A DNA stretch of 64,000 bases from a bacterium (GCA_030647555.1 JAUSJG010000007.1:36169-100168); one strand, 5' to 3'. Positions 7,661 to 61,800 are shown, numbered from the stretch's first letter. The notes: generated by a model not told the origin, from the letters alone. Numbers and translations are program-made.

Positions 7661-8461
7661 CTACACTTGCACGACCGCCTGCTCGCGACGCTCCTTGTCG
7701 GCGATGACGGCCTCGAGCGCCCCGAGGCTTAAACTCCCAGGACACTTTGTGTGAAACCGTACATCTTCCGGACCGACCTGCATCGGATTGGGATCAGAAC
7801 CGGTATTGAACACAAACAGCATATAGCGATCGTCAGCCAACCTATATGTTTTGTGCACCTCCGGGTTTTTTCGGTCACCACGGACTTCACTGAAAATCAG
7901 CTCTCCTTCATCCATGGCACGAGACCGATCCTCGACGATGTACTCGACAACTAATCCCTCGACAGTAGTTCTCGTTTTGACAATTTCCTTTTGGCGCTTT
8001 TCTTCCGCTTCGAACTTCACCGAGGCTTCATCGGAGATGCGTCGCGCCAAACGCGCACGCAATTCGGATTCGTGAGACCCATCGGATTCGGGAACCACAG
8101 CCTTCTTTTCCCGCCAATCATCTCCCAGTTCCTTCAGGCAAGCGGCAAATTCCTCATTCTGCCTCATGTGTCGCACAAACATCCTGTTGGCCTCTTCGAT
8201 GACCTCGGGCAGTGTTTCCGGGTGAATAAACGACAGAGTCTCGAAATGGCGACGACCATACTTCTGAATAAATAGGGTTGAATCATTCGGATCGTTCGGA
8301 TTCCACACGGAGGATGAAACCAACTCCCTCCGATTTTCTTCATCATCTAGTACGTTCATAACCCACCTCCAGATGAAGCCGATCAAAACAGCCGTCCCCC
8401 AAAAACCGAACCACACAAAAGCAAACCACCAGCCCACATTCGGATTCTCTAGACTAAACAT
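7661..8461 (-). CDS. Hypothetical protein with an N-terminal transmembrane anchor
   Basis: 266 aa. The N-terminal WWFAFVWFGFWGTAVLIGFIW is hydrophobic and the rest is charged and soluble. No family is recognisable. It interrupts the rplO-secY junction. Confidence 0.55.
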   Translation of the reverse strand: MFSLENPNVGWWFAFVWFGFWGTAVLIGFIWRWVMNVLDDEENRRELVSSSVWNPNDPNDSTLFIQKYGRRHFETLSFIHPETLPEVIEEANRMFVRHMRQNEEFAACLKELGDDWREKKAVVPESDGSHESELRARLARRISDEASVKFEAEEKRQKEIVKTRTTVEGLVVEYIVEDRSRAMDEGELIFSEVRGDRKNPEVHKTYRLADDRYMLFVFNTGSDPNPMQVGPEDVRFHTKCPGSLSLGALEAVIADKERREQAVVQV

Positions 8462-8799
8462 AACCCCCTACCCTTTTACCGAGACCCGCTCGGCACGGTT
8501 CCGTCATATAGGCGGAAAACTTGCTCCCGTTTACGTATCCGCGTATAGCGAACTTTGGGAGCGACCAAACAAACCCACCGGCATTAAACGCCAGCGAGTA
8601 ACTACTCTCAATTTATGCAATTTGGGAAAATACAGACAGATAAATCAGCCCCTAATTATACTCCCAAACAGAGTTTTTGTAAATAGTGTGGGATTTTTAG
8701 GGATTTTATTAGCTTGGGTTGGCTGATTTTTACGAACATTGACGAACGACGACACATTAAGGAGTATCCTGCGAAAGGATACTCCTTAAACGGACGTGA

Positions 8800-50648: not shown

Positions 50649-50744
50649 GAATAAAACTCACCTCTTTCTTTAAATTTGAATGCCTAAATAGTAACAGGGC
50701 AACCAAAAAGTGTCAAAATTCTGTAGACAACCGTCAAACAGGGT

Positions 50745-50960
50745 CCGTCCCTGCACGCCAGGGTCGGACCCTGATCGGCGTAGTAAAAAGTTTTCGTCGT
50801 CGCATACCCCTCTTTCCACACCACACGTAACTTTAGTAAAATGTGGTTTCAAAGAGAGCCACCCATTTGGGCGAGTCGCTCTGATGAGCGGGAATCAGCG
50901 TCGTCGAGAGGGTGCGTCCCTGCCGAGCAGGGTCGGACCCTGATTTGCGTCAAAAAAGTT
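50745..50960. repeat. Two ~70-bp direct repeats, each containing CAGGGTCGGACCCTG-type REP-like hairpins
   Basis: 50745-50815 and 50905-50975 share GGGT(C/G)CGTCCCTGC...CAGGGTCGGACCCTGAT..GCGT..AAAAAGTTTTC. Confidence 0.7.
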
Positions 50961-53255: not shown

Positions 53256-53879
53256 TCAAATAATTACAGAGCGTACCGCCATTCGATCTAATGAATTATT
53301 ATATTTCTGAAGTAATTCAGGGTTTTTTTCGATAATTAATAAGTTGTAATATTTTTGCCATGCTTTCTTAAAATCACGAAAATATGCGTTATTATGAAAC
53401 CTTAATCTTTTATCAACAATTTGCACGCCAGCATCTTTATCAATACATCCTTCACAATAAAAAATACCTTCTCCGTCAGTATATCCATCTGATTGATTTT
53501 GAACCAATGAATCTGCTTTTATAAAATATTCGTGTGCTAAACCACAACGAAATAGCGTATAAATATTTCCTTCCTTGTCTATGAAATCTACATCCTTAAA
53601 TTTCTGCTTAAATTCTTTGTAGTGATTCTTATCACTATTCCACTCAAAAAACTCCAGCGCCTTATTAAACTGTTCTTGACTTTTTCCCTGTAAACCAAGC
53701 GTTCCATTTGCAAGTCCACCAAGAAATTCTGTGTTAGATAACAGAGCCAAAGCCACAGTATAATTTGCTTTCGCCTTGATACAATTTTGAATATCGTTAA
53801 AGATAAAACCAAAAATATATTTCTTAAAGTATTCTTTTATTAACTCTTCATTTCTTTCCATATTTTTTATTTCTCCCAA
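53256..53879 (-). CDS. Hypothetical protein; the last gene of the R-M operon
   Basis: 207 aa. It overlaps the hsdMS stop by 13 nt, so it is probably co-transcribed. No recognisable domain. Confidence 0.45.
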   Translation of the reverse strand: MGEIKNMERNEELIKEYFKKYIFGFIFNDIQNCIKAKANYTVALALLSNTEFLGGLANGTLGLQGKSQEQFNKALEFFEWNSDKNHYKEFKQKFKDVDFIDKEGNIYTLFRCGLAHEYFIKADSLVQNQSDGYTDGEGIFYCEGCIDKDAGVQIVDKRLRFHNNAYFRDFKKAWQKYYNLLIIEKNPELLQKYNNSLDRMAVRSVII

Positions 53880-56401
53880 AGTTTAGCGATAGCTTCTTTG
53901 GTTTTTTGTTCGTAGATTTCGATCAGTTTTTTGGCGGATTCTACCAATGCGCGCTCGGCTTCGATTTTTTCCACTATTTGTTTTTGTATGGCGAGAGATG
54001 GAAGAGGAATTTCTATCTCAAGAAGATTTCCTTTACTAATTCTTTGTCTTGTGGCCCCCGATAAATCAGAGTTGATTCTCTTCTGATATTCATCGGTTTG
54101 GGTTATTGATACAAAATATTTTGCATTAATTGGATTATCAAACCGAAAAATTGTACAGTCTACAGCTGTTATTGTTCTTTTGTTTATTTCTGGAAGTATA
54201 CAGGCTCGTCCGACAGGATCTGGTAATCTTGATAGTAATACATCTCCAACAAAAATTTCTGTGCATTTTAATCTCTTAAATGTCTCATTAGAAATATATC
54301 TTTCTTTGCCGGCCTTATCTATGTATTCACCAATACCAACATTACCCGTCTGAATTAACCTAATCCCACTATCAGATTGGTCTTTTGATTCTATCCAATC
54401 GCCATCATCAATAAATTTTGCAATCCTGCCCAACTTCACCTTTTTCCACTCGGGGTCGATGTCGATTTTGGGTTTCCAGTTTTGGACTATTTGTTTGGCT
54501 CCGGCGATTATACTCGCGTAGCCGTCCAACTCCGCCACAATTTGTTCTTGAATTTCGAGAGGCGGAAGAGGGATTTGAAGTCTTTCAAAATTTGATTTTG
54601 AAATTTCAGCAAAAGTGCCTCCACTCGACATTGCTTTCATTTCATCAACCAACTCTGTAAGTGCCCACGCTATGTACATATAGTCGGTTAATTTTTTATC
54701 ACGGATGACTACATTTTTGAAGCCTTGATTAGTGGCCAACTCAATAGAATTTGTAGCTATTCTTCCAATAGTAGCCCGTGAGGATACAAGTACAGAATGT
54801 CTGGGTAGTAGTTTGGCGGATGAATTTTTCAGCCCATCCTTTGTTATTTTTCTCTGCGTTTCTTTTATGTCATTCAACAAATTACTTGCAGGTAAATCTA
54901 CTAACGTCGCCCAATTTACATCTCCATTCCAATATTTTTCATTTTTCGAGTCTGGAGTACCACCTGATTCAATATTAAAATATTTTTCATTTCCCAACTT
55001 CACCATTGGCCACTTGGCATTGGTGTAGTCGGTGGCGATGCGGTAGCGATCGCCGGAGAGGTTATAGTCGCCATTTTCGGCAATTTTTTCTTTTAATACG
55101 GCGACAGCCAGAGATTGCTTCCCCACTTCGCCAAGGCTTCGAGAGGCAGGCGCAATGACGGGCGACGCTTGCCATTTTTTTAGGATTTCCAAAGCTATCG
55201 GCAAATCGTTTTTGCTGATTGGTCGCTTGGTCGCGCCGAGGTCAAAGCCGTCTTGTTCTATTTTTACAAACAGAATTTCTTTGCTTTGTTTTGCCAGCTC
55301 ATTATTGAAAAGCAAAATACTCGTTTTCACTCCGCTGTATGGCGCAAATACGCCAGACGGCAAACTAACTACTGCATAAAGTCCGTCCTCTACGAGATTT
55401 TTGCGAAGCTGTTTGTGCGCTGTGCCTGATTGAAAGATAATTCCTTCCGGCACAATGATACCGGCGCGTCCCTTTGGTCGCAGGTGGTTCATAATGTAAT
55501 CAACAAACAAAACTTCTGAACGACTTGATTGAACACTGAATTTGCTGTGCGGTTTGATCCCGCCTTTTGGTGACATAAACGGTGGATTGGCGAGAATCAC
55601 ATCAAACTTATCATTCCAGCGTTCTTCACTGGAAAGTGAGTCGTATTGGAAAATCTTAGGATTTTTGAACTGATGCAAATACATATTGACCTGCGCAATA
55701 CGCACCATCGTCGGGTCTATATCATAACCCTCAAAATTGTTCATTATTTTCTTTCGCTCATCTGGCGTTAGTGATTTTTCTTTCTTGTCCGGATCATCTT
55801 TACCGTCATGTTGTTCCAGAATATGTTGGTACGACTTCATCAAAAACCCGCCCGTGCCACAAGCGGGATCAAGCACTTTGTCATCTTTCGTTGGATTTAC
55901 AACATCGACAATAAAATCAATGATGTGGCGAGGCGTGCGAAATTGCCCAGCGTCCCCCTGGCTCGACATAACGGAAAGCAGATATTCGTAAGCGTTACCG
56001 AGTTCCTCCGGATGAGAGTAGTCAAAGTAATCAATCTCTTTCAAAAATAGTCCGAGCGTTTCGGGTGAGCGATACGGCAAAAAAGCGGATTTAAAAATTC
56101 CACGGAAAAGTTCCGGCAATTGTTTGGCTTCGGAAAACTTCAACAGCGCATCGGAATATAAATTCATGCGCTCCTGATTTCCCATCCGCGCGTCCATTAA
56201 TCGTGTCCAGGCATAACGCTCTAAATTACCAACGAAAAAAGATGGTTCGCCACCCGCCTTGATAGCCGCTTGATCCATATCATCCATAAATTTGTAAATC
56301 AGCGCGTTGGTAATTTGATCGATTTGCGATGTGGGATTTGGCACGACGCCAACCAATACTTGGCGAGCCGCGTCGATATGACGTTTTGTGTCTGCGTTCA
56401 T
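53867..56401 (-). CDS. Type I R-M fused methyltransferase-specificity protein (HsdM-HsdS fusion)
   Basis: The N-terminal ~440 aa are an N6-adenine MTase, with DPACGTGGFL (motif I) and NPPF (motif IV). The C-terminal ~400 aa hold two target-recognition domains and the conserved HsdS central and distal helices (LPPLEIQEQIV, LPSLAIQKQIV). Confidence 0.8.
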   Translation of the reverse strand: MNADTKRHIDAARQVLVGVVPNPTSQIDQITNALIYKFMDDMDQAAIKAGGEPSFFVGNLERYAWTRLMDARMGNQERMNLYSDALLKFSEAKQLPELFRGIFKSAFLPYRSPETLGLFLKEIDYFDYSHPEELGNAYEYLLSVMSSQGDAGQFRTPRHIIDFIVDVVNPTKDDKVLDPACGTGGFLMKSYQHILEQHDGKDDPDKKEKSLTPDERKKIMNNFEGYDIDPTMVRIAQVNMYLHQFKNPKIFQYDSLSSEERWNDKFDVILANPPFMSPKGGIKPHSKFSVQSSRSEVLFVDYIMNHLRPKGRAGIIVPEGIIFQSGTAHKQLRKNLVEDGLYAVVSLPSGVFAPYSGVKTSILLFNNELAKQSKEILFVKIEQDGFDLGATKRPISKNDLPIALEILKKWQASPVIAPASRSLGEVGKQSLAVAVLKEKIAENGDYNLSGDRYRIATDYTNAKWPMVKLGNEKYFNIESGGTPDSKNEKYWNGDVNWATLVDLPASNLLNDIKETQRKITKDGLKNSSAKLLPRHSVLVSSRATIGRIATNSIELATNQGFKNVVIRDKKLTDYMYIAWALTELVDEMKAMSSGGTFAEISKSNFERLQIPLPPLEIQEQIVAELDGYASIIAGAKQIVQNWKPKIDIDPEWKKVKLGRIAKFIDDGDWIESKDQSDSGIRLIQTGNVGIGEYIDKAGKERYISNETFKRLKCTEIFVGDVLLSRLPDPVGRACILPEINKRTITAVDCTIFRFDNPINAKYFVSITQTDEYQKRINSDLSGATRQRISKGNLLEIEIPLPSLAIQKQIVEKIEAERALVESAKKLIEIYEQKTKEAIAKLWEK

Positions 56402-56522
56402 ATTATTTCAATTTTTTAAGATTAACCGCCTTTCTACTACATTCTCACTACATGATTTTTTGGCTAAGATAGGCCATTTTTATGAATTTTATCAACAATA
56501 TTCATAAAACCACTACATGCTT

Positions 56523-57962
56523 TTATGCCCAATTTGGTACATATTCTTTCTGTTTTTCAGATTCCTTAATGAAACCTTTTTCTATTGTTGCCTTAATAAT
56601 TATTGAAGCAGTTGGATAGTTTTTTTCTCCGATACTAAGTCTCTCTCTAAGAGTTGCATTTGTCATTCTTGATTTTTCTATATATTTCAAAACACAATGC
56701 TGAAAACACGCACGTACTTTATCATCCAAAGTCATCTCCTTTAAATCTTTATGTGCATATAGAGTGACTTTCGTAAAATCATCATATTTTTCAAAACTAG
56801 GTGCTGGCAATTGGTATAAAGCCACGTTAACTAATGCTCGATCAATACCAGTCCCTCCCTCTTCACAAACACCAATTTGCCTCATAAACGAAGCTAAGTC
56901 TTCATTTCTAGACCGTGGAGGGTGATCAATAAATCTATCCGTTTCAATTAATGGTTCCCCCGTATTGGTTATTTCAATTCTATTATCAAATATTTCTATC
57001 ATTGGTCCAGCGCCTGATATTGAAAGATCTTGATGAATAAGTGCATTGGCAACAAATTCACGAATTGCAACTTCTGGATACATCTTTGCTTCTTTTCTCA
57101 ATGCTTTGGAGATTACTTCATTGTGGGGAAGCTTGTCGTTTACATAATCAAGTAAATTCTCAAATGCAATTGCATATCCAAGTGCTCCCACTTGCTCTTT
57201 TACCCTTTCGACCTTTGTATTGCCTTTGTAGAGTACAACTCTTACAGATTTTCTCCTGACCGTTGGAAAATCATTCAAATTTTTAGCAAACAAAATAGCT
57301 CCAAGATTTGTAATATCGTAGTTGTTATTAAAAACCTTTTTTACTAATCCATGCTGAGCCATTTTTTCAACAAATTGGTTCGTTTCACTTGGAATCTCTT
57401 GCTTTGTAAGAGAAAAATATTTTGAATAGTCTAATAAGCCCAATACATCTGCAATAGTCAAATTTTCCTGCGCTATTCCTTTTTCAAAACTTTTTTTATT
57501 AATATTATCCCAAATCTTTCTTTCTTTCTCAGGATAGTCATTTAGTTTTGGAGTAGCTGATCCAACCCTGATATAAGCTATGTTATTAAACTTTACTGGT
57601 TGGTTTGTAGCGGGTGGAATCTCAAAAATGACAACATTTTTTTCTTCGTGCTGGAATTCGTGAATAGTGAAATTAATCCTCGGATTTAAATGTTGTGACA
57701 GCCAAAATTCTAACTGATCATTGCCAATCTTTTCTCTGCTGGGAAAAAAATTTGTACCAACAATTTCATGATTATCATCCTTGATACCGAACACAATGTA
57801 AGCGAATTTTTTATCCTTCAGATTTGCAGAGTTTGATAACGCTGATATCCTTTTGCCAATATCGTCTTTATTATAGTTATTTTCCTTGAATTCAACTGTT
57901 TCATCTTCAATTGGAAGTAAAACTAAATTTTTTAATAATAACCTTAATTGCTCTTTATCCAT
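56523..57962 (-). CDS. Schlafen/AlbA_2-domain plus HATPase_c_4 (RecG-C-terminal-like) putative regulator
   Basis: N-terminal ETVEFKE...ISALSNS is an AlbA_2 DNA-binding fold. The C-terminal segment is a GHKL-type ATPase-like domain. Sits between hsdMS and hsdR. Confidence 0.6.
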   Translation of the reverse strand: MDKEQLRLLLKNLVLLPIEDETVEFKENNYNKDDIGKRISALSNSANLKDKKFAYIVFGIKDDNHEIVGTNFFPSREKIGNDQLEFWLSQHLNPRINFTIHEFQHEEKNVVIFEIPPATNQPVKFNNIAYIRVGSATPKLNDYPEKERKIWDNINKKSFEKGIAQENLTIADVLGLLDYSKYFSLTKQEIPSETNQFVEKMAQHGLVKKVFNNNYDITNLGAILFAKNLNDFPTVRRKSVRVVLYKGNTKVERVKEQVGALGYAIAFENLLDYVNDKLPHNEVISKALRKEAKMYPEVAIREFVANALIHQDLSISGAGPMIEIFDNRIEITNTGEPLIETDRFIDHPPRSRNEDLASFMRQIGVCEEGGTGIDRALVNVALYQLPAPSFEKYDDFTKVTLYAHKDLKEMTLDDKVRACFQHCVLKYIEKSRMTNATLRERLSIGEKNYPTASIIIKATIEKGFIKESEKQKEYVPNWA

Positions 57963-57964
57963 AT

Positions 57965-60544
57965 CTATAAATTTGTTAAATGATAGGCATAATCACGGAC
58001 ATATTGCGGGACGACTGACTTGAATCCGTTGAGTTGTTGATATTCGTCAAAATGAAATGATGACTCCGTATTAAAACGACCGATTTGACGGCTCGTGACG
58101 ATTTCACGGACTTTTTCATCCGTCACATACGCTTTAAAAAACATTTTGACTGGCGCGTAGTGCGTTTGATCCACCGGATTCACTTCCATAAACTTTTCCC
58201 ATTCTGATTCGAGCAGGTCATCTTTCATCTCAAAAGTTTCTTTGTCGCCAAAAGCTACCTGCAAAAATTCTTTGACGGTAATACGGCGATCAACGCCAAA
58301 AATCTTTTTGATCTTGTCGAGGTTGAGGAAATATTTTGGCTTATCAAAAACCTGCTTTTGGGCAAAATTTTCGGCTTCTTCGGTGTCGCCGTTTTCCCAC
58401 ATATTTTTGAGTTTTTCGTTGCCAAGCACATCTTCTTCCACGGCACGCTTGAAGCCCTCACGGTCAATGCGCATAATCACGCCCTCGGGAGTTTCGGAAA
58501 GCGTAGCGAGTTCGTCGCTGGTCGCCAGGTCTATCGGGCCTTTTGCCCCAATAGGCTCGTCGCCCACAACACCAGCGCCATCTGCACCTAAGCCAGTGCC
58601 GTCAGAGCCAGTTGATGGTGTGATAAAAGGATAAGTAAGTTTTATTTTTTCATCATAATCAAATTCATTTTCAAAATATTCGCAGGTAGCAAAGAAATCA
58701 AAAAACTTGAATTTTTCTTTTGGTTCTATAACTGGATCGTTTTGATAATCGTTATATTCAAACTGCCATTTCCTTGTGCCTCGTCCTTTGATCTGCACAA
58801 AATCAGTCGGACTAAAAACCGGACGCATCAGCGCGATATTGAGTAAATCTTGGCAATCGTAGCCGGTTGTCATCATTCCTACAGTCACGGCAACACGAGT
58901 TTTACTCGAGTCGTAGCCTTCGGGGTGGTTTGTTTGTCCACCAAGACGATTATTGGCAAAATTGATGGTCATTTGCTGGGCACTCGCTACTTGCGAAGAA
59001 ACTTGCATCGCGAAATTGGATTCGCTGTATTGTTCCGGCCATTTTTCAAAAGCAATTTTGTTCAAGACATTGGTTAATCGAGAGGCATGTTTTTGAGATA
59101 CGGCAAAAACTATCGTTTTCCCAAACAAATCCACGCCAAGTTGTTTGGCAACGGGATCAAAAAGTCCGTTATCAATGAGCGCCTTACACATAGCAATATT
59201 GGTTTCTTCGTTGAAAATTTTGCGCTCGTAGTGGCGTTCGTTGAAAGTCTCATCAATTGTTTCGCCACTTTCGGTGAGAGTGTGGACGGCATAGCCTTCT
59301 TCCGAAAGAAGTTCCGTCGTTATGTTTGTGCGAGCGTCCACGAGAGTCGGCTTGATGAGATAGCCCTCCTCCGCGCCTTTTTCCAGATCATATGAAAAAG
59401 TCGGGTTGCCGGCTTCACAGCCAAATGTTTTATAGGTGTCAATCAAAAGTCGGCGCTCATATTCTCTTTGACTATCTGCGCCTTCAGCATCAAAACCTCT
59501 TAGATAATTTTTTGGCGTCGCGGTAAGACCAAGTTTGTAGCCGACAAAATATTCAAAAACCGCACGGCTGTTGCCACCAATGGAACGATGAGCTTCGTCG
59601 GAAATAACCAGTTCAAAATCGGTTGGTGAAAATTCTTTTTTGTAACGATCACCGGCAAGAAAGGTTTGGATCGTGGAAACGACAATGCTGGCCTTTGCCC
59701 ACGAATCTTTGTTTTCTTTGTAGATAACGCTTCGATAATCCTTGCCAAGATATTGAACGAACGCTTTTTGCGCTTGAACTTCGAGCTCAAGGCGATCAAC
59801 GAGAAAAAGTATTCGGCGAGCATTGCCGGATTTGAGAAATAGTTTTATGACCGCGGCAGAAATAAGCGTTTTTCCTGTTCCCGTTGCCATTTCAAACAAA
59901 AATCTTTGGCTTCCATTCTTTGCGCATTCTTGAAGCGCTTTGATTGCTTGCACTTGGTATGGACGAAGTTGCTTGAGTTTATTGGTTTTCAAAAACTCTG
60001 TGCGAGTAGATTCATCTTGAAAAGCAGGGTCTGTCGCGAAGGTTGGAATTTGTGTCGAGACGATATAATTTTCATCAACAACCGTTTGCGCAAGCTCGAC
60101 AGGATTCGGCGTATACTTTTCATATTGAGTTATCGAATCTTGTGTTGGAAAACGAGAAATTGTGTCGGGATTACCGTGTTTGGTATCCCAAAAATAATGA
60201 ATATTGCCGTTTGAGAGGATAACAAAACGAGCACCGGCGTTGCGAGCGTAGTTTCGCGCTTGCTCTTTCGCTGACAGCGGATCAATCGCTTCTTTTTTGG
60301 CCTCTACAACAACGAGGGGACGCTTATCTTTATCTAATAAAAGAAAGTCAATAAAACCGTGAGTTTCATTTTCAAAATCATCACCCAGTTCGGCATATTT
60401 TACGCCCGGCTCAAGGTGGATATTGGCTTTGCCGTTTTTATCATCTTCAAAACGCCAACCTGATTCTTCGAGTAGTTTATTTATTTTAATTCGTGCCTTT
60501 GCTTCTTTTGACATAATGTATTTAAAGTAACGCCGAACGACCAA
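57965..60544 (-). CDS. hsdR: Type I restriction enzyme R subunit (HsdR)
   Basis: An N-terminal PD-(D/E)xK nuclease motif, LLLDKDKRPLVVVEAKK. A helicase Walker A, MATGTGKT, with a DEAH box in VISDEAHRS. 859 aa. Confidence 0.85.
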   Translation of the reverse strand: MVVRRYFKYIMSKEAKARIKINKLLEESGWRFEDDKNGKANIHLEPGVKYAELGDDFENETHGFIDFLLLDKDKRPLVVVEAKKEAIDPLSAKEQARNYARNAGARFVILSNGNIHYFWDTKHGNPDTISRFPTQDSITQYEKYTPNPVELAQTVVDENYIVSTQIPTFATDPAFQDESTRTEFLKTNKLKQLRPYQVQAIKALQECAKNGSQRFLFEMATGTGKTLISAAVIKLFLKSGNARRILFLVDRLELEVQAQKAFVQYLGKDYRSVIYKENKDSWAKASIVVSTIQTFLAGDRYKKEFSPTDFELVISDEAHRSIGGNSRAVFEYFVGYKLGLTATPKNYLRGFDAEGADSQREYERRLLIDTYKTFGCEAGNPTFSYDLEKGAEEGYLIKPTLVDARTNITTELLSEEGYAVHTLTESGETIDETFNERHYERKIFNEETNIAMCKALIDNGLFDPVAKQLGVDLFGKTIVFAVSQKHASRLTNVLNKIAFEKWPEQYSESNFAMQVSSQVASAQQMTINFANNRLGGQTNHPEGYDSSKTRVAVTVGMMTTGYDCQDLLNIALMRPVFSPTDFVQIKGRGTRKWQFEYNDYQNDPVIEPKEKFKFFDFFATCEYFENEFDYDEKIKLTYPFITPSTGSDGTGLGADGAGVVGDEPIGAKGPIDLATSDELATLSETPEGVIMRIDREGFKRAVEEDVLGNEKLKNMWENGDTEEAENFAQKQVFDKPKYFLNLDKIKKIFGVDRRITVKEFLQVAFGDKETFEMKDDLLESEWEKFMEVNPVDQTHYAPVKMFFKAYVTDEKVREIVTSRQIGRFNTESSFHFDEYQQLNGFKSVVPQYVRDYAYHLTNL

Positions 60545-60595: not shown

Positions 60596-60700
60596 CTAAC
60601 CACTTTTTTGGGGACAACGAGCGACAAACGCCAATCAGGGTCCGGCCCATGAACCACGCTACGGTTCAGGGCCGGACCCTCTACTGCGACGACGAAATCC
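60596..60700. repeat. Repeat block containing CAGGGTCCGGCCC/GGGCCGGACCCT REP-like hairpins. Direct-repeat partner of 61722-61800.
   Basis: GGGACAACGAGCGACAAACGCCAATCAGGGTCCGGCCC versus GGGGACGACGAGCGACGAACGCCAATCAGGGTCCGACCC at 61726. Confidence 0.7.
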
Positions 60701-60870: not shown

Positions 60871-61051
60871 AGGCCTCGTCCGTAAATAAATTCCCAATCT
60901 TATACTCACTGCATCTTTAACTGCAAGCACTTCTCAATCGTAAAACCTTTCACCGTACTGCTAGTACGCCGTAAGGTTATACTCAATCAAAGTACTCACA
61001 TTTAAAGCGCATTGAGCATAATCTTGGGGAATTTATTTACGGACGAGGCCT
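60871..61051. repeat. 27/28-bp inverted repeat pair (AGGCCTCGTCCGTAAATAAATTCCCAA ... TTGGGGAATTTATTTACGGACGAGGCCT) enclosing ~125 bp
   Basis: Left copy 60871-60897, right copy 61024-61051. The right copy overlaps the stop codon of the NYN gene. Confidence 0.75.
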
Positions 61052-61642
61052 TATTTTTACCGATAATATCTCACTTCTAAAATCCGTAATATCGAAATAA
61101 TGATGACAGGCTGGCGGGAGTTCTTTGGCTACATGTCCGCTTCTTGAGAAAACGATCGTCATCTTTCCTTTCCCTCTTAAAACTTTCAGCAAATATTCAA
61201 AATCACAATCGCCGGAAAACAAAATAAACGTATCGTATTTTTCTATTTTATCTATCGCGTCTACGGCGATTTCAACGTCAAAATTCGCTTTGCGGTGCGG
61301 ATGTTCCGGCGCATGATCAAAATATTTCTTCATCTGCTTGGTGGAAAGCTTATACCCCGCTTTCTTCAGCATATACATAAAATTTCGATGGGACTCACTT
61401 TCAAAATCGGCAGAATAATAACTGATAGCGGTCAACTCCCCCATTTTTTCGAAAAACATTTTAAGCTGCCGATAATCTACCGTCCATTTTAATTTTCCCG
61501 GTTCAAAATGCTTAAGATTGTCCGGAATATCTTTTGGATTAACCCACATACTGCGTACCGATTGCTCAAGATTCGCCGCATCAATGAAAACACTAATTCT
61601 GCCGCGAAGGACGTCTTTTAGCTTGATATGATATTCATTCAT
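61037..61642 (-). CDS. NYN-domain (LabA-like) predicted RNase
   Basis: SVFIDAANL, DVEIAVDAID and FILFSGDCDF are the NYN/LabA acidic motifs. Confidence 0.7.
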   Translation of the reverse strand: MNEYHIKLKDVLRGRISVFIDAANLEQSVRSMWVNPKDIPDNLKHFEPGKLKWTVDYRQLKMFFEKMGELTAISYYSADFESESHRNFMYMLKKAGYKLSTKQMKKYFDHAPEHPHRKANFDVEIAVDAIDKIEKYDTFILFSGDCDFEYLLKVLRGKGKMTIVFSRSGHVAKELPPACHHYFDITDFRSEILSVKIRPRP

Positions 61643-61721: not shown

Positions 61722-61800
61722 GACGTTTTTTAAGGGGGACGACGAGCGACGAACGCCAATCAGGGTCCGACCCTGCGCCTCAGGGACGGACCCTATATCT
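61722..61800. repeat. Repeat block, partner of 60596-60700
   Basis: See 60596. Confidence 0.7.

Follow-up and report, generated by a model that had tools for sequence, protein, structure and literature searches.

Fusions of the modification (HsdM) and specificity (HsdS) subunits of Type I restriction-modification (R-M) enzymes have been described before. An hsdM-hsdS fusion in the EcoKI system was termed 'Type IMS', a class defined as HsdM fused to an HsdS with one or two target-recognition domains (TRDs) and accompanied by a separate HsdR (Roberts et al., 2012; PMC3510504). In vivo this fusion needs no hsdM for restriction and modification, while in vitro it requires added free HsdM, and its authors did not settle where the second M comes from (PMC3510504). 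An engineered M-S fusion of Staphylococcus aureus CC398-1 is active too, restricting and modifying together with HsdR (PMC6158711). Among natural proteins, the HsdM-S1/2 fusion of Vibrio vulnificus YJ016 (7EEW) dimerizes into an M2S1-like complex (Seo et al. 2022, cited in PMC12429846). The term 'Type IMS' appears in the searchable literature only in the 2012 paper, and that literature, REBASE excluded, yielded no description of a natural family of fused M-S proteins with two TRDs. Here we analyse a member of such a family, found in a 64,000 nt stretch of bacterial DNA (GCA_030647555.1 JAUSJG010000007.1:36169-100168; 'the window' hereafter means this whole stretch). Its hsdMS gene joins HsdM to a two-TRD HsdS alongside a separate hsdR, in line with the 'Type IMS' definition, and shares the locus with a Schlafen-ATPase gene and a small terminal gene, p201 (Table 1).

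We interpret this locus as a mosaic defence operon, in which a natural fused-subunit Type I R-M core carries two cargo genes. We are confident that the core is an R-M system, and consider the mosaic interpretation as a whole probable, if well short of certain; that the cargo is coupled to the core we infer by analogy. An earlier note, made from this sequence alone, had already read the locus as an augmented defence module consisting of a Type I R-M system, a true M-S fusion and accessory genes, and the analyses below support that core reading. The components are all of recognised kinds, and the arrangement is one of modular cargo, not of one dedicated four-gene machine.

A natural fusion of HsdM and HsdS

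Four open reading frames (ORFs), all on the minus strand, were confirmed at the coordinates given in the earlier note, with changes of start codon that are described below. The 844-aa HsdMS protein contains, in Pfam, N6_Mtase at aa 132-455 (E = 5e-55) followed by two Methylase_S stretches, with no nuclease domain found, and its methyltransferase (MTase) part matches PADLOC MTase_I at 330 bits. MTase motifs I and IV, as noticed previously, are present in the translation as DPACGTGGF and NPPF. Both are invariant across 52 HsdMS homologs, and together they are the S-adenosylmethionine (SAM) motif I and NPPF motif IV of the gamma-class N6-adenine MTases of Type I systems. The specificity part is laid out as TRD1 (~aa 464-611), a first conserved helical region (CR1, 615-641), TRD2 (654-799) and a second conserved helical region (CR2, 803-843). 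This layout, which has the two TRDs and two conserved helices of Type I systems, is backed by secondary structure from an AlphaFold2 (AF2) model. The repeats LPPLEIQEQIV and LPSLAIQKQIV, also read from the sequence at the outset, were both found in the translation, and the top PDB sequence match of the specificity part is 1YF2, an S subunit (E = 2e-45).

The join between the two parts is short. The MTase part ends in DYNLSGDRY and lacks the usual C-terminal helical tail of HsdM, which normally packs against the S coiled coil. In an unfused HsdM (locus L136; loci other than the window carry the prefix L), ~40 residues of C-terminal helix follow the NWNLDFKNP motif, whereas only ~10 residues separate DYNLSGDRY from the start of TRD1 in the window protein. 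The HsdM tail is therefore missing, which is more than an in-frame joining of two genes.

Could the fusion be a sequencing or assembly error, a frameshift that joins an hsdM and an hsdS that are really separate? We found no support for this explanation, consider it close to impossible, and reject it. An independent Logan assembly (L130) covers the 3' 574 hsdMS codons, the p201 junction and the whole of p201 at 100% identity. Moreover, hundreds of homologs at 43-77% identity retain a single uninterrupted frame, the junction (GDYNLSGDRYRxATDYxNAKWPMV) is nearly invariant among the 52 homologs, and the usual HsdM tail is absent rather than frameshifted. PF02384 and PF01420 lie in one chain in all of the 120 best HsdMS homolog clusters (54-100% identity). 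About 115 of these are full-length fusions of 797-849 aa, three of 638-648 aa fit single-TRD forms, and there is one partial record. With an identical independent assembly and uniformly fused homologs, the fusion is genuine.

The genomic setting is also conserved. We define sister loci as those of the best 80 of 578 HsdMS relatives from a metagenome scan; in 73 of them hsdR immediately precedes hsdMS on the same strand, and in the seven others the sequence extends at most 940 nt upstream. Neither the window locus nor any of the 80 sister loci has a separate hsdM or hsdS; seven of the sister loci encode single-TRD forms of 630-696 aa. Across the 52 homologs there is almost no variation in the M domain, the junction or either conserved helix, whereas the TRDs are hypervariable; between the window protein and those of L011 and L132, identity is 71-78% over the M part but drops to 24-47% over the TRDs. 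Hypervariable TRDs in a constant frame are the classic pattern of Type I specificity swapping, and the M-S fusion is under selection across a large family with hsdR upstream. Many of the homolog clusters are labelled Patescibacteria, Roizmanbacteria, Paceibacterota or Azambacteria. The fused layout is common in tiny uncultured bacteria, and the family is abundant in Patescibacteria and stably fused.

The restriction subunit is of the kind expected of Type I systems, a PD-(D/E)xK nuclease joined to a superfamily 2 (SF2) helicase-like motor. Pfam finds HSDR_N_2 and ResIII/DEAD domains, PADLOC matches REase_I (E = 3e-57), and the translation, read directly, carries a D...EAK nuclease motif, GTGKT and DEAH. 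While these domains agree with the first description of the gene, its proposed start at TTG 60544 does not hold: ATG 60514 is the most likely start, because the alignment to a homolog of 82% identity begins at residue 1 (MSKEAK). HsdR is 82-84% identical to its counterparts in L132 and L011, and its closest solved relative is 3H1T, an HsdR fragment from V. vulnificus YJ016 (E = 2e-27). Among NCBIfam models the EcoAI/FtnUII type R subunit scores highest, at 212 bits, far short of the cut-off of 550, and the EcoEI_R_C domain was not detected in the window HsdR, unlike in that of L136. HsdR thus does not reach the equivalog model for Type IB (EcoAI/EcoEI), and the system is at most IB-like.

Two cargo slots around hsdMS

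The hsdMS family has two cargo slots, the first in the gap between hsdR and hsdMS and the second 3' of hsdMS. The R-MS spacer is 29 nt or shorter in 54 of the 73 sister loci with hsdR, and is enlarged to 219-1213 nt in 19 of the 80 sister loci. Where scanned, these gaps contained KilA-N, ORF6N, PIN_12, RhuM, Fic, DUF3800, 23S_rRNA_IVP or an IS200 transposase. In the second slot, a same-strand ORF of at least 60 aa starts between -40 and +300 nt of the hsdMS stop in 60 of the 80 sister loci. Pfam families among 52 of these ORFs included DUF4145 (three), Abi_C (two), AbiH (two), AAA_15/AAA_21 (two) and RVT_1 (two), together with AIPR, GmrSD_N, TIR_2, PycTM, DUF4917, UvrD and RadC.

The commonest gene 3' of fused hsdMS belongs to an unannotated family of 15 members; of the 64 loci in which a third ORF follows hsdMS, 15 have it, and R and H are invariant within its RNxxAHxxG motif (alignment A3). 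An RNxxAH-type motif is the classic signature of the HEPN superfamily. Three members of the family, scanned individually, gave no Pfam match even at E <= 1. Members are ~220-260 aa long, and some have a C-terminal zinc-ribbon extension.

This slot repertoire matches the R-M-linked HEPN, abortive infection (Abi), RhuM and Fic genes that have been described along with the PrrC paradigm (PMC3710099), where at least 16 HEPN clades are R-M-linked. Two fixed slots are a trap for defence genes in Patescibacteria, which have tiny genomes and few described immune systems; the slots have already led to two families of small, unannotated proteins whose motifs resemble those of HEPN.

A Schlafen-ATPase gene in the first slot

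At the window locus the first slot holds a gene whose ATG lies 2 nt past the hsdR stop. It had been read as encoding an AlbA_2 plus GHKL-ATPase-like protein of 479 aa, and Pfam agrees, with SLFN_AlbA_2 at aa 19-139 (E = 3e-22) and HATPase_c_4 at aa 317-401 (E = 1e-19); the C-terminal region is putatively DNA-binding. An N-terminal IEDETVEFK supplies E19-x4-E24-x-K26, which lines up with the E17/D22/K24 triad of CbCash by motif, not by structural alignment (PMC13462974). In that 2026 paper, a prokaryotic Schlafen is reported to cleave tRNA by way of its E-D-K triad, and Schlafen-ATPase(-DNA-binding) proteins are called 'tightly associated' with R-M systems. The window protein has the features of this R-M-associated kind, namely the triad, a fused ATPase and a location inside an R-M operon. 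It also shares a Schlafen/AlbA_2 domain, an ATPase, a DNA-binding region and an R-M context with 'Cluster 7' of the same source and with COG2865 and the solved relative 3LMM; the likeness to Cluster 7 is one of architecture and context, not of placement in the authors' tree. By analogy, the Schlafen-GHKL ATPase of the first slot would most likely be a regulated nuclease of tRNA or other RNA.

The protein is strongly conserved. Its 120 best-matching clusters are 72-100% identical, nearly all exactly 479 aa long and mostly from Patescibacteria. It outconserves the R-M genes that host it, at 72-89% across more than 100 clusters versus no more than 73% for HsdMS homologs, which suggests either recent spread or strong constraint within Patescibacteria. 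Proteins of this type had been linked in the earlier note to R-M loci and defence islands, and the gene does recur in both Type I operons and Abi-rich islands. The order hsdR-SLFN-hsdMS, followed by an NYN-PLD gene, is found in L132-134 and in 16 further similar places, whereas in L136 the gene lies between unfused hsdM and hsdS, in L135 it adjoins HEPN_AbiU2 and in L131 it lies among AbiEii genes and a PLD gene.

A second feature travels with the gene. In its 3' flank, which is also the hsdMS upstream region, lie three direct ATGTAGT boxes, two of them in tandem 11 nt apart, or about one helical turn. The boxes are invariant in five genomic contexts that differ in the downstream gene (hsdMS, hsdS, AbiU2, PLD; alignment A5), and the pattern occurs in all seven places that have the Schlafen gene (six loci and the window) and in none of 130 other loci. 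The 5' flank of the gene, by comparison, is not conserved. In the available part of PMC13462974 we found no mention of conserved 3' ATGTAGT boxes. A scan of viral contigs for the box pattern gave five hits, none encoding a Schlafen protein and, by a rough estimate, within what chance would produce. An RNA element in the 3' spacer was considered and rejected, as the fold is not significant (z = -1.06). The boxes may be an operator for the DNA-binding tail of the Schlafen protein, or else a promoter carried by the cassette.

This pattern invites the alternative that the protein is mainly a transcription regulator, which would bind the three boxes and control the downstream gene, here hsdMS, with a timing or sensing role like that of a C protein. 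Such a role fits the strict association of the 3' boxes with the gene, the spacing of the tandem pair, the unconserved 5' flank and the spacer without significant RNA structure. It also fits the names of homologs ('predicted HTH transcriptional regulator', 'putative DNA binding domain-containing protein') and the COG2865 label, 'predicted HTH regulator' (HTH, helix-turn-helix). However, the E-x4-E-x-K residues in the sequence are of the Schlafen catalytic type, and the prokaryotic Schlafens that have been characterised are nucleases (PMC13462974). Furthermore, the Schlafen gene is missing from the R-MS gap in all 80 sister loci, and most of those with hsdR have the short spacers noted above; the gene is therefore not needed to regulate hsdMS. 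We thus think a mainly regulatory protein rather unlikely, and prefer the nuclease, though the two roles are compatible and not mutually exclusive. A highly conserved Schlafen-ATPase cassette carrying its own candidate operator boxes is a possible regulatory element.

p201, a small gene in the second slot

The terminal gene of the locus had been described as an unannotated ORF of 207 aa that overlaps the hsdMS stop. Its most likely start is ATG 53861, because the product recorded at NCBI has 201 aa and a GGGAGA box precedes this codon. This start falls 5 nt past the hsdMS stop, so hsdMS and p201 do not overlap. The lack of annotation stands, as a PADLOC search gave no hit to the protein and neither did Pfam, NCBIfam or PHROGs.

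The p201 family comprises 86 clusters at 90% identity and 894 at 50% identity (E <= 1e-3), nearly all of them stand-alone proteins of 150-220 aa. Its spread is patchy, across the Candidate Phyla Radiation (CPR), Chloroflexi, Thaumarchaeota, Asgard and Proteobacteria, and the few domain fusions (P0207, P0288, P0269, P0293 and others) include no informative Pfam domain. Across 38 diverse members (alignment A1), R105, G107 and H110 are invariant within LFRCGLxHEYFIK, an Rx4H motif that falls within the Rx4-6H pattern of the HEPN superfamily. The protein is modelled well by AF2 (predicted local distance difference test score, pLDDT, 93; predicted TM-score, pTM, 0.90). The only recurring Foldseek matches of the model are AbiV chains (TM 0.31-0.42), and AbiV is a 201-aa HEPN RNase with a beta-hairpin and a mid-chain Rx4-6H motif. 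We propose that p201 is most likely a small stand-alone effector of the abortive-infection type, and our best single guess is that it would act as a HEPN-like, metal-independent RNase using R105 and H110.

The HEPN part of this proposal is tentative, and we regard it as doubtful, with several observations standing against it. The 38 members gave no Pfam match at E <= 10, HEPN families included, so p201 has no sequence or profile similarity to a described HEPN family; a PDB profile search returned nothing, and Foldseek found no significant match to the model in PDB or BFVD. The AbiV scores themselves are at noise level (E 2.8 or worse, probability 0.14 or less). The residue after the conserved Arg is Cys106 in at least 90% of members, rather than the polar residue (N, D or H) usual in HEPN proteins, with Asn there in one archaeal member (P0026), and the model includes beta elements. 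Comparison with the RNxxAH third-gene family by hhalign showed no relationship (probability 0.2). One further gene counts in favour of the p201 proposal. The third gene after a 52%-identical hsdMS in L070 gives a weak match to the p201 profile that would not be significant in a large database. It pairs YxxFRHGIAH with YxLFRCGLxH and FEDF with YFRDF, with His following the Arg, and it may be a distant member of the p201 family in the same slot.

Does p201 belong to the R-M locus at all? It lies directly 3' of hsdMS in three flanking contexts, those of the window, L008-L010 and L011 (homologs at ~70% identity), at a distance of 4-5 nt in two of the three. This link is confined to the closest clade, at 69% identity or more, and beyond it the picture speaks for a different explanation: that the accessory genes are unrelated passengers, the slots being permissive insertion points in a mobile island and p201 a non-defence hitch-hiker, possibly with a housekeeping role. 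Homologs of p201 at 63-65% identity have no R-M genes nearby, and none of 36 genome loci with a tblastn-positive p201 relative has an HsdM or HsdS gene near it, the only R-M match being a distant HsdR ~5 kb away in L042. These 36 loci show no conserved partner either (148 Pfam families among 123 neighbouring proteins). Several metagenome-assembled genomes (MAGs) have relatives at 44-45% identity between guaA (GMP synthase) and purD, an unusually stable housekeeping position for an otherwise sporadic gene. They are L001, L003, L004, L015 and L017, with the gene at about 10.0 or 8.0 kb, and any taxon label they have is Chloroflexi or delta-proteobacterium. Finally, p201 is found in none of the 80 sister hsdMS loci, just as the Schlafen gene is absent from all of their R-MS gaps. 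All of this tells against cargo that is functionally tied to the R-M core.

Nonetheless, p201 keeps its position directly 3' of hsdMS in three loci with different flanks, and elsewhere that same slot overwhelmingly holds recognised defence or Abi genes. The patchy spread of the p201 family is typical of mobile defence or selfish genes, and the Schlafen gene turns up in Type I operons of two architectures. Passengers without a relation to the core are a possible explanation to which we give limited weight, and we retain the mosaic defence operon as the better account.

Base composition and surroundings of the locus

The whole block had been described as more AT-rich than its flanks, which is true only of the swappable modules: p201 (GC 0.307), AlbA_2 (0.332), TRD2 (0.366) and TRD1 (0.398). 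The M domain (0.446) and hsdR (0.430) are near the window mean of 0.436. Between 52.5 and 62 kb we found none of the features of phase variation that were looked for, namely long homopolymers, significant tandem repeats, spare hsdS copies or a recombinase. An Rfam scan of the whole window gave no hits.

Repeats like repetitive extragenic palindromic (REP) elements, noted earlier immediately upstream of the locus, are real but do not bound it. The palindrome, with core CAGGGTCGGACCCTGAT, has 10 matches in the window against 0.08 expected. The family is dispersed, with a single copy next to the R-M locus, and is therefore not an island marker. A different, 181-nt near-perfect palindrome, unique in the window and with perfect outer arms of 25 nt, sits between an NYN-domain gene and the hsdR upstream region. 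It folds at -104 kcal/mol (z = -14.5), and the NYN-domain ORF ends in one of its arms, which includes the stop and the four preceding codons; Rfam gave only sub-threshold matches to generic long hairpins. The NYN-domain gene itself lies just upstream of hsdR. Given the NYN-PLD fusion in the third-gene slot of L132-134, the window NYN gene might be part of the same defence island.

Table 1. Features of the window locus and of related loci; positions are in the window unless a locus is named.
Feature	Position	Strand	Remarks
hsdR	57965..60514	minus	restriction/translocase subunit, 849 aa from ATG 60514; ORF open back to TTG 60544
Schlafen (AlbA_2) + GHKL-type ATPase gene	56523..57962	minus	479 aa, cargo in R-MS slot
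Schlafen cassette 3' flank = hsdMS upstream region	56402..56522	minus	three direct ATGTAGT boxes
ATGTAGT boxes	box 1, 56511-56518; tandem pair, 56436-56453	minus	counterparts in L131-L136 at about 8440-8570
hsdMS, methyltransferase part (about aa 1-504)	54890..56401	minus	gamma-class N6-adenine MTase
hsdMS, specificity part	53867..54889	minus	TRD1, CR1, TRD2, CR2
p201	53256..53861	minus	201 aa, unannotated family, cargo in slot 3' of hsdMS
NYN-domain gene	61037-61642		
Near-perfect palindrome	60871-61051		
REP-like copies	2086-2131, 50737-50775, 50926-50944, 60634-60650, 61759-61777		
NYN-PLD fusion	L132:11025-12041		third-gene slot after hsdMS
RNxxAH family members	L069:10432-11094, L078:2728-3462, L055:8437-9222		and 12 more loci
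Third gene with weak p201 profile match	L070:7219-7941		

Comparison with known systems

By its sequence features, HsdMS joins a gamma-class N6-methyladenine (m6A) methyltransferase, over a tether of ~10 residues, to a specificity module complete with two TRDs. TRD1 and TRD2 would direct it to a bipartite target, which it would then methylate, and HsdR, with its PD-ExK nuclease and SF2 motor, would act with HsdMS to restrict unmodified DNA by ATP-driven translocation. What sets the window system apart from a standard Type I enzyme, with three separate subunits assembled as R2M2S1, is that M and S are one 844-aa chain.

The engineered EcoKI and CC398-1 fusions resemble it in combining M with a full two-TRD S, in having a separate HsdR and in raising the question of the second M. 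They are joined end to end, however, with the whole HsdM tail kept, while the window protein lacks the tail helix and has a join of ~10 residues. A natural counterpart is the V. vulnificus YJ016 system, in which an HsdM-specificity fusion is likewise natural and HsdR is encoded separately (7EEW and 3H1T are from the same strain; PMC12429846). The top Foldseek match of the HsdMS model is in fact 7EEW, the 'intact MTase' of that strain, although sequence similarity is confined to the MTase core (aa 109-381, E = 5e-27). But 7EEW, a minimal MTase whose homodimer equals M2S1, has a single TRD per chain, an architecture shared by the seven single-TRD sister loci, whereas HsdMS has two different TRDs and both conserved helices; an HsdMS homodimer therefore has four TRDs and does not recreate M2S1. 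The single-chain Type IIB/IIG enzymes AloI and CjeI share with HsdMS the ratio of one MTase to two TRDs per chain, a ratio called 'a mystery' in a review of Type I enzymes (PMC3874165). They differ in having an N-terminal nuclease in the same chain and no ATP-dependent motor, while in the window system the nuclease is on the separate SF2 translocase HsdR; BpuSI, a further single-chain enzyme, is only a distant Foldseek match (TM 0.34).

Where, then, would the second M domain come from? Since each chain offers a single M for its two TRDs and has no tail helix, and since free hsdM is absent from the window locus and from all 80 sister loci, the most likely source would be another HsdMS chain, with an S part that is then redundant. 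Two points count against such an (MS)2 complex. It is not established even for the precedent, as the EcoKI fusion needs free HsdM in vitro. In addition, although the individual domains fold well in the AF2 model of full-length HsdMS, pTM is 0.49 and pLDDT falls below 50 in the linker segments (416-429 and 455-458), so the M-to-TRD geometry is undefined. We raise, as a speculative view, the possibility that a tail-less two-TRD HsdM~S with HsdR assembles differently from R2M2S1, and that the 3' slot defines at least two new small effector families (p201 and RNxxAH). The complex might be R2(MS)2 with one specificity module idle, or a single-M complex with other rules of self-protection. If it does depart from R2M2S1, the system would be a natural, tractable model for the 1 MTase : 2 TRD problem that AloI and CjeI pose. 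In the searchable literature, two-TRD fused Type I enzymes are laboratory constructs only; the window belongs to a large natural family, which lets one ask how one methylase domain serves a two-part recognition module.

The finding as a whole extends the themes of R-M modularity and R-M-linked abortive infection and overturns nothing current. For the cargo, the closest analogy is PrrC-EcoPrrI (PMC3710099), in which, as may be the case here, an R-M operon has an embedded second-line effector that targets RNA. PrrC and RloC combine an ABC-type ATPase with a C-terminal HEPN nuclease; such domains are in none of the four window proteins, and p201 has no detectable homology to either PrrC or RloC. 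In companions the two are alike, with RhuM, Fic/Doc, DUF4145 and Abi genes common to the R-M-embedded genes of that study and to the slots of this family (PMC3710099), and both cargo genes would, by analogy with PrrC and EcoPrrI, provide a back-up defence for cases in which restriction fails.

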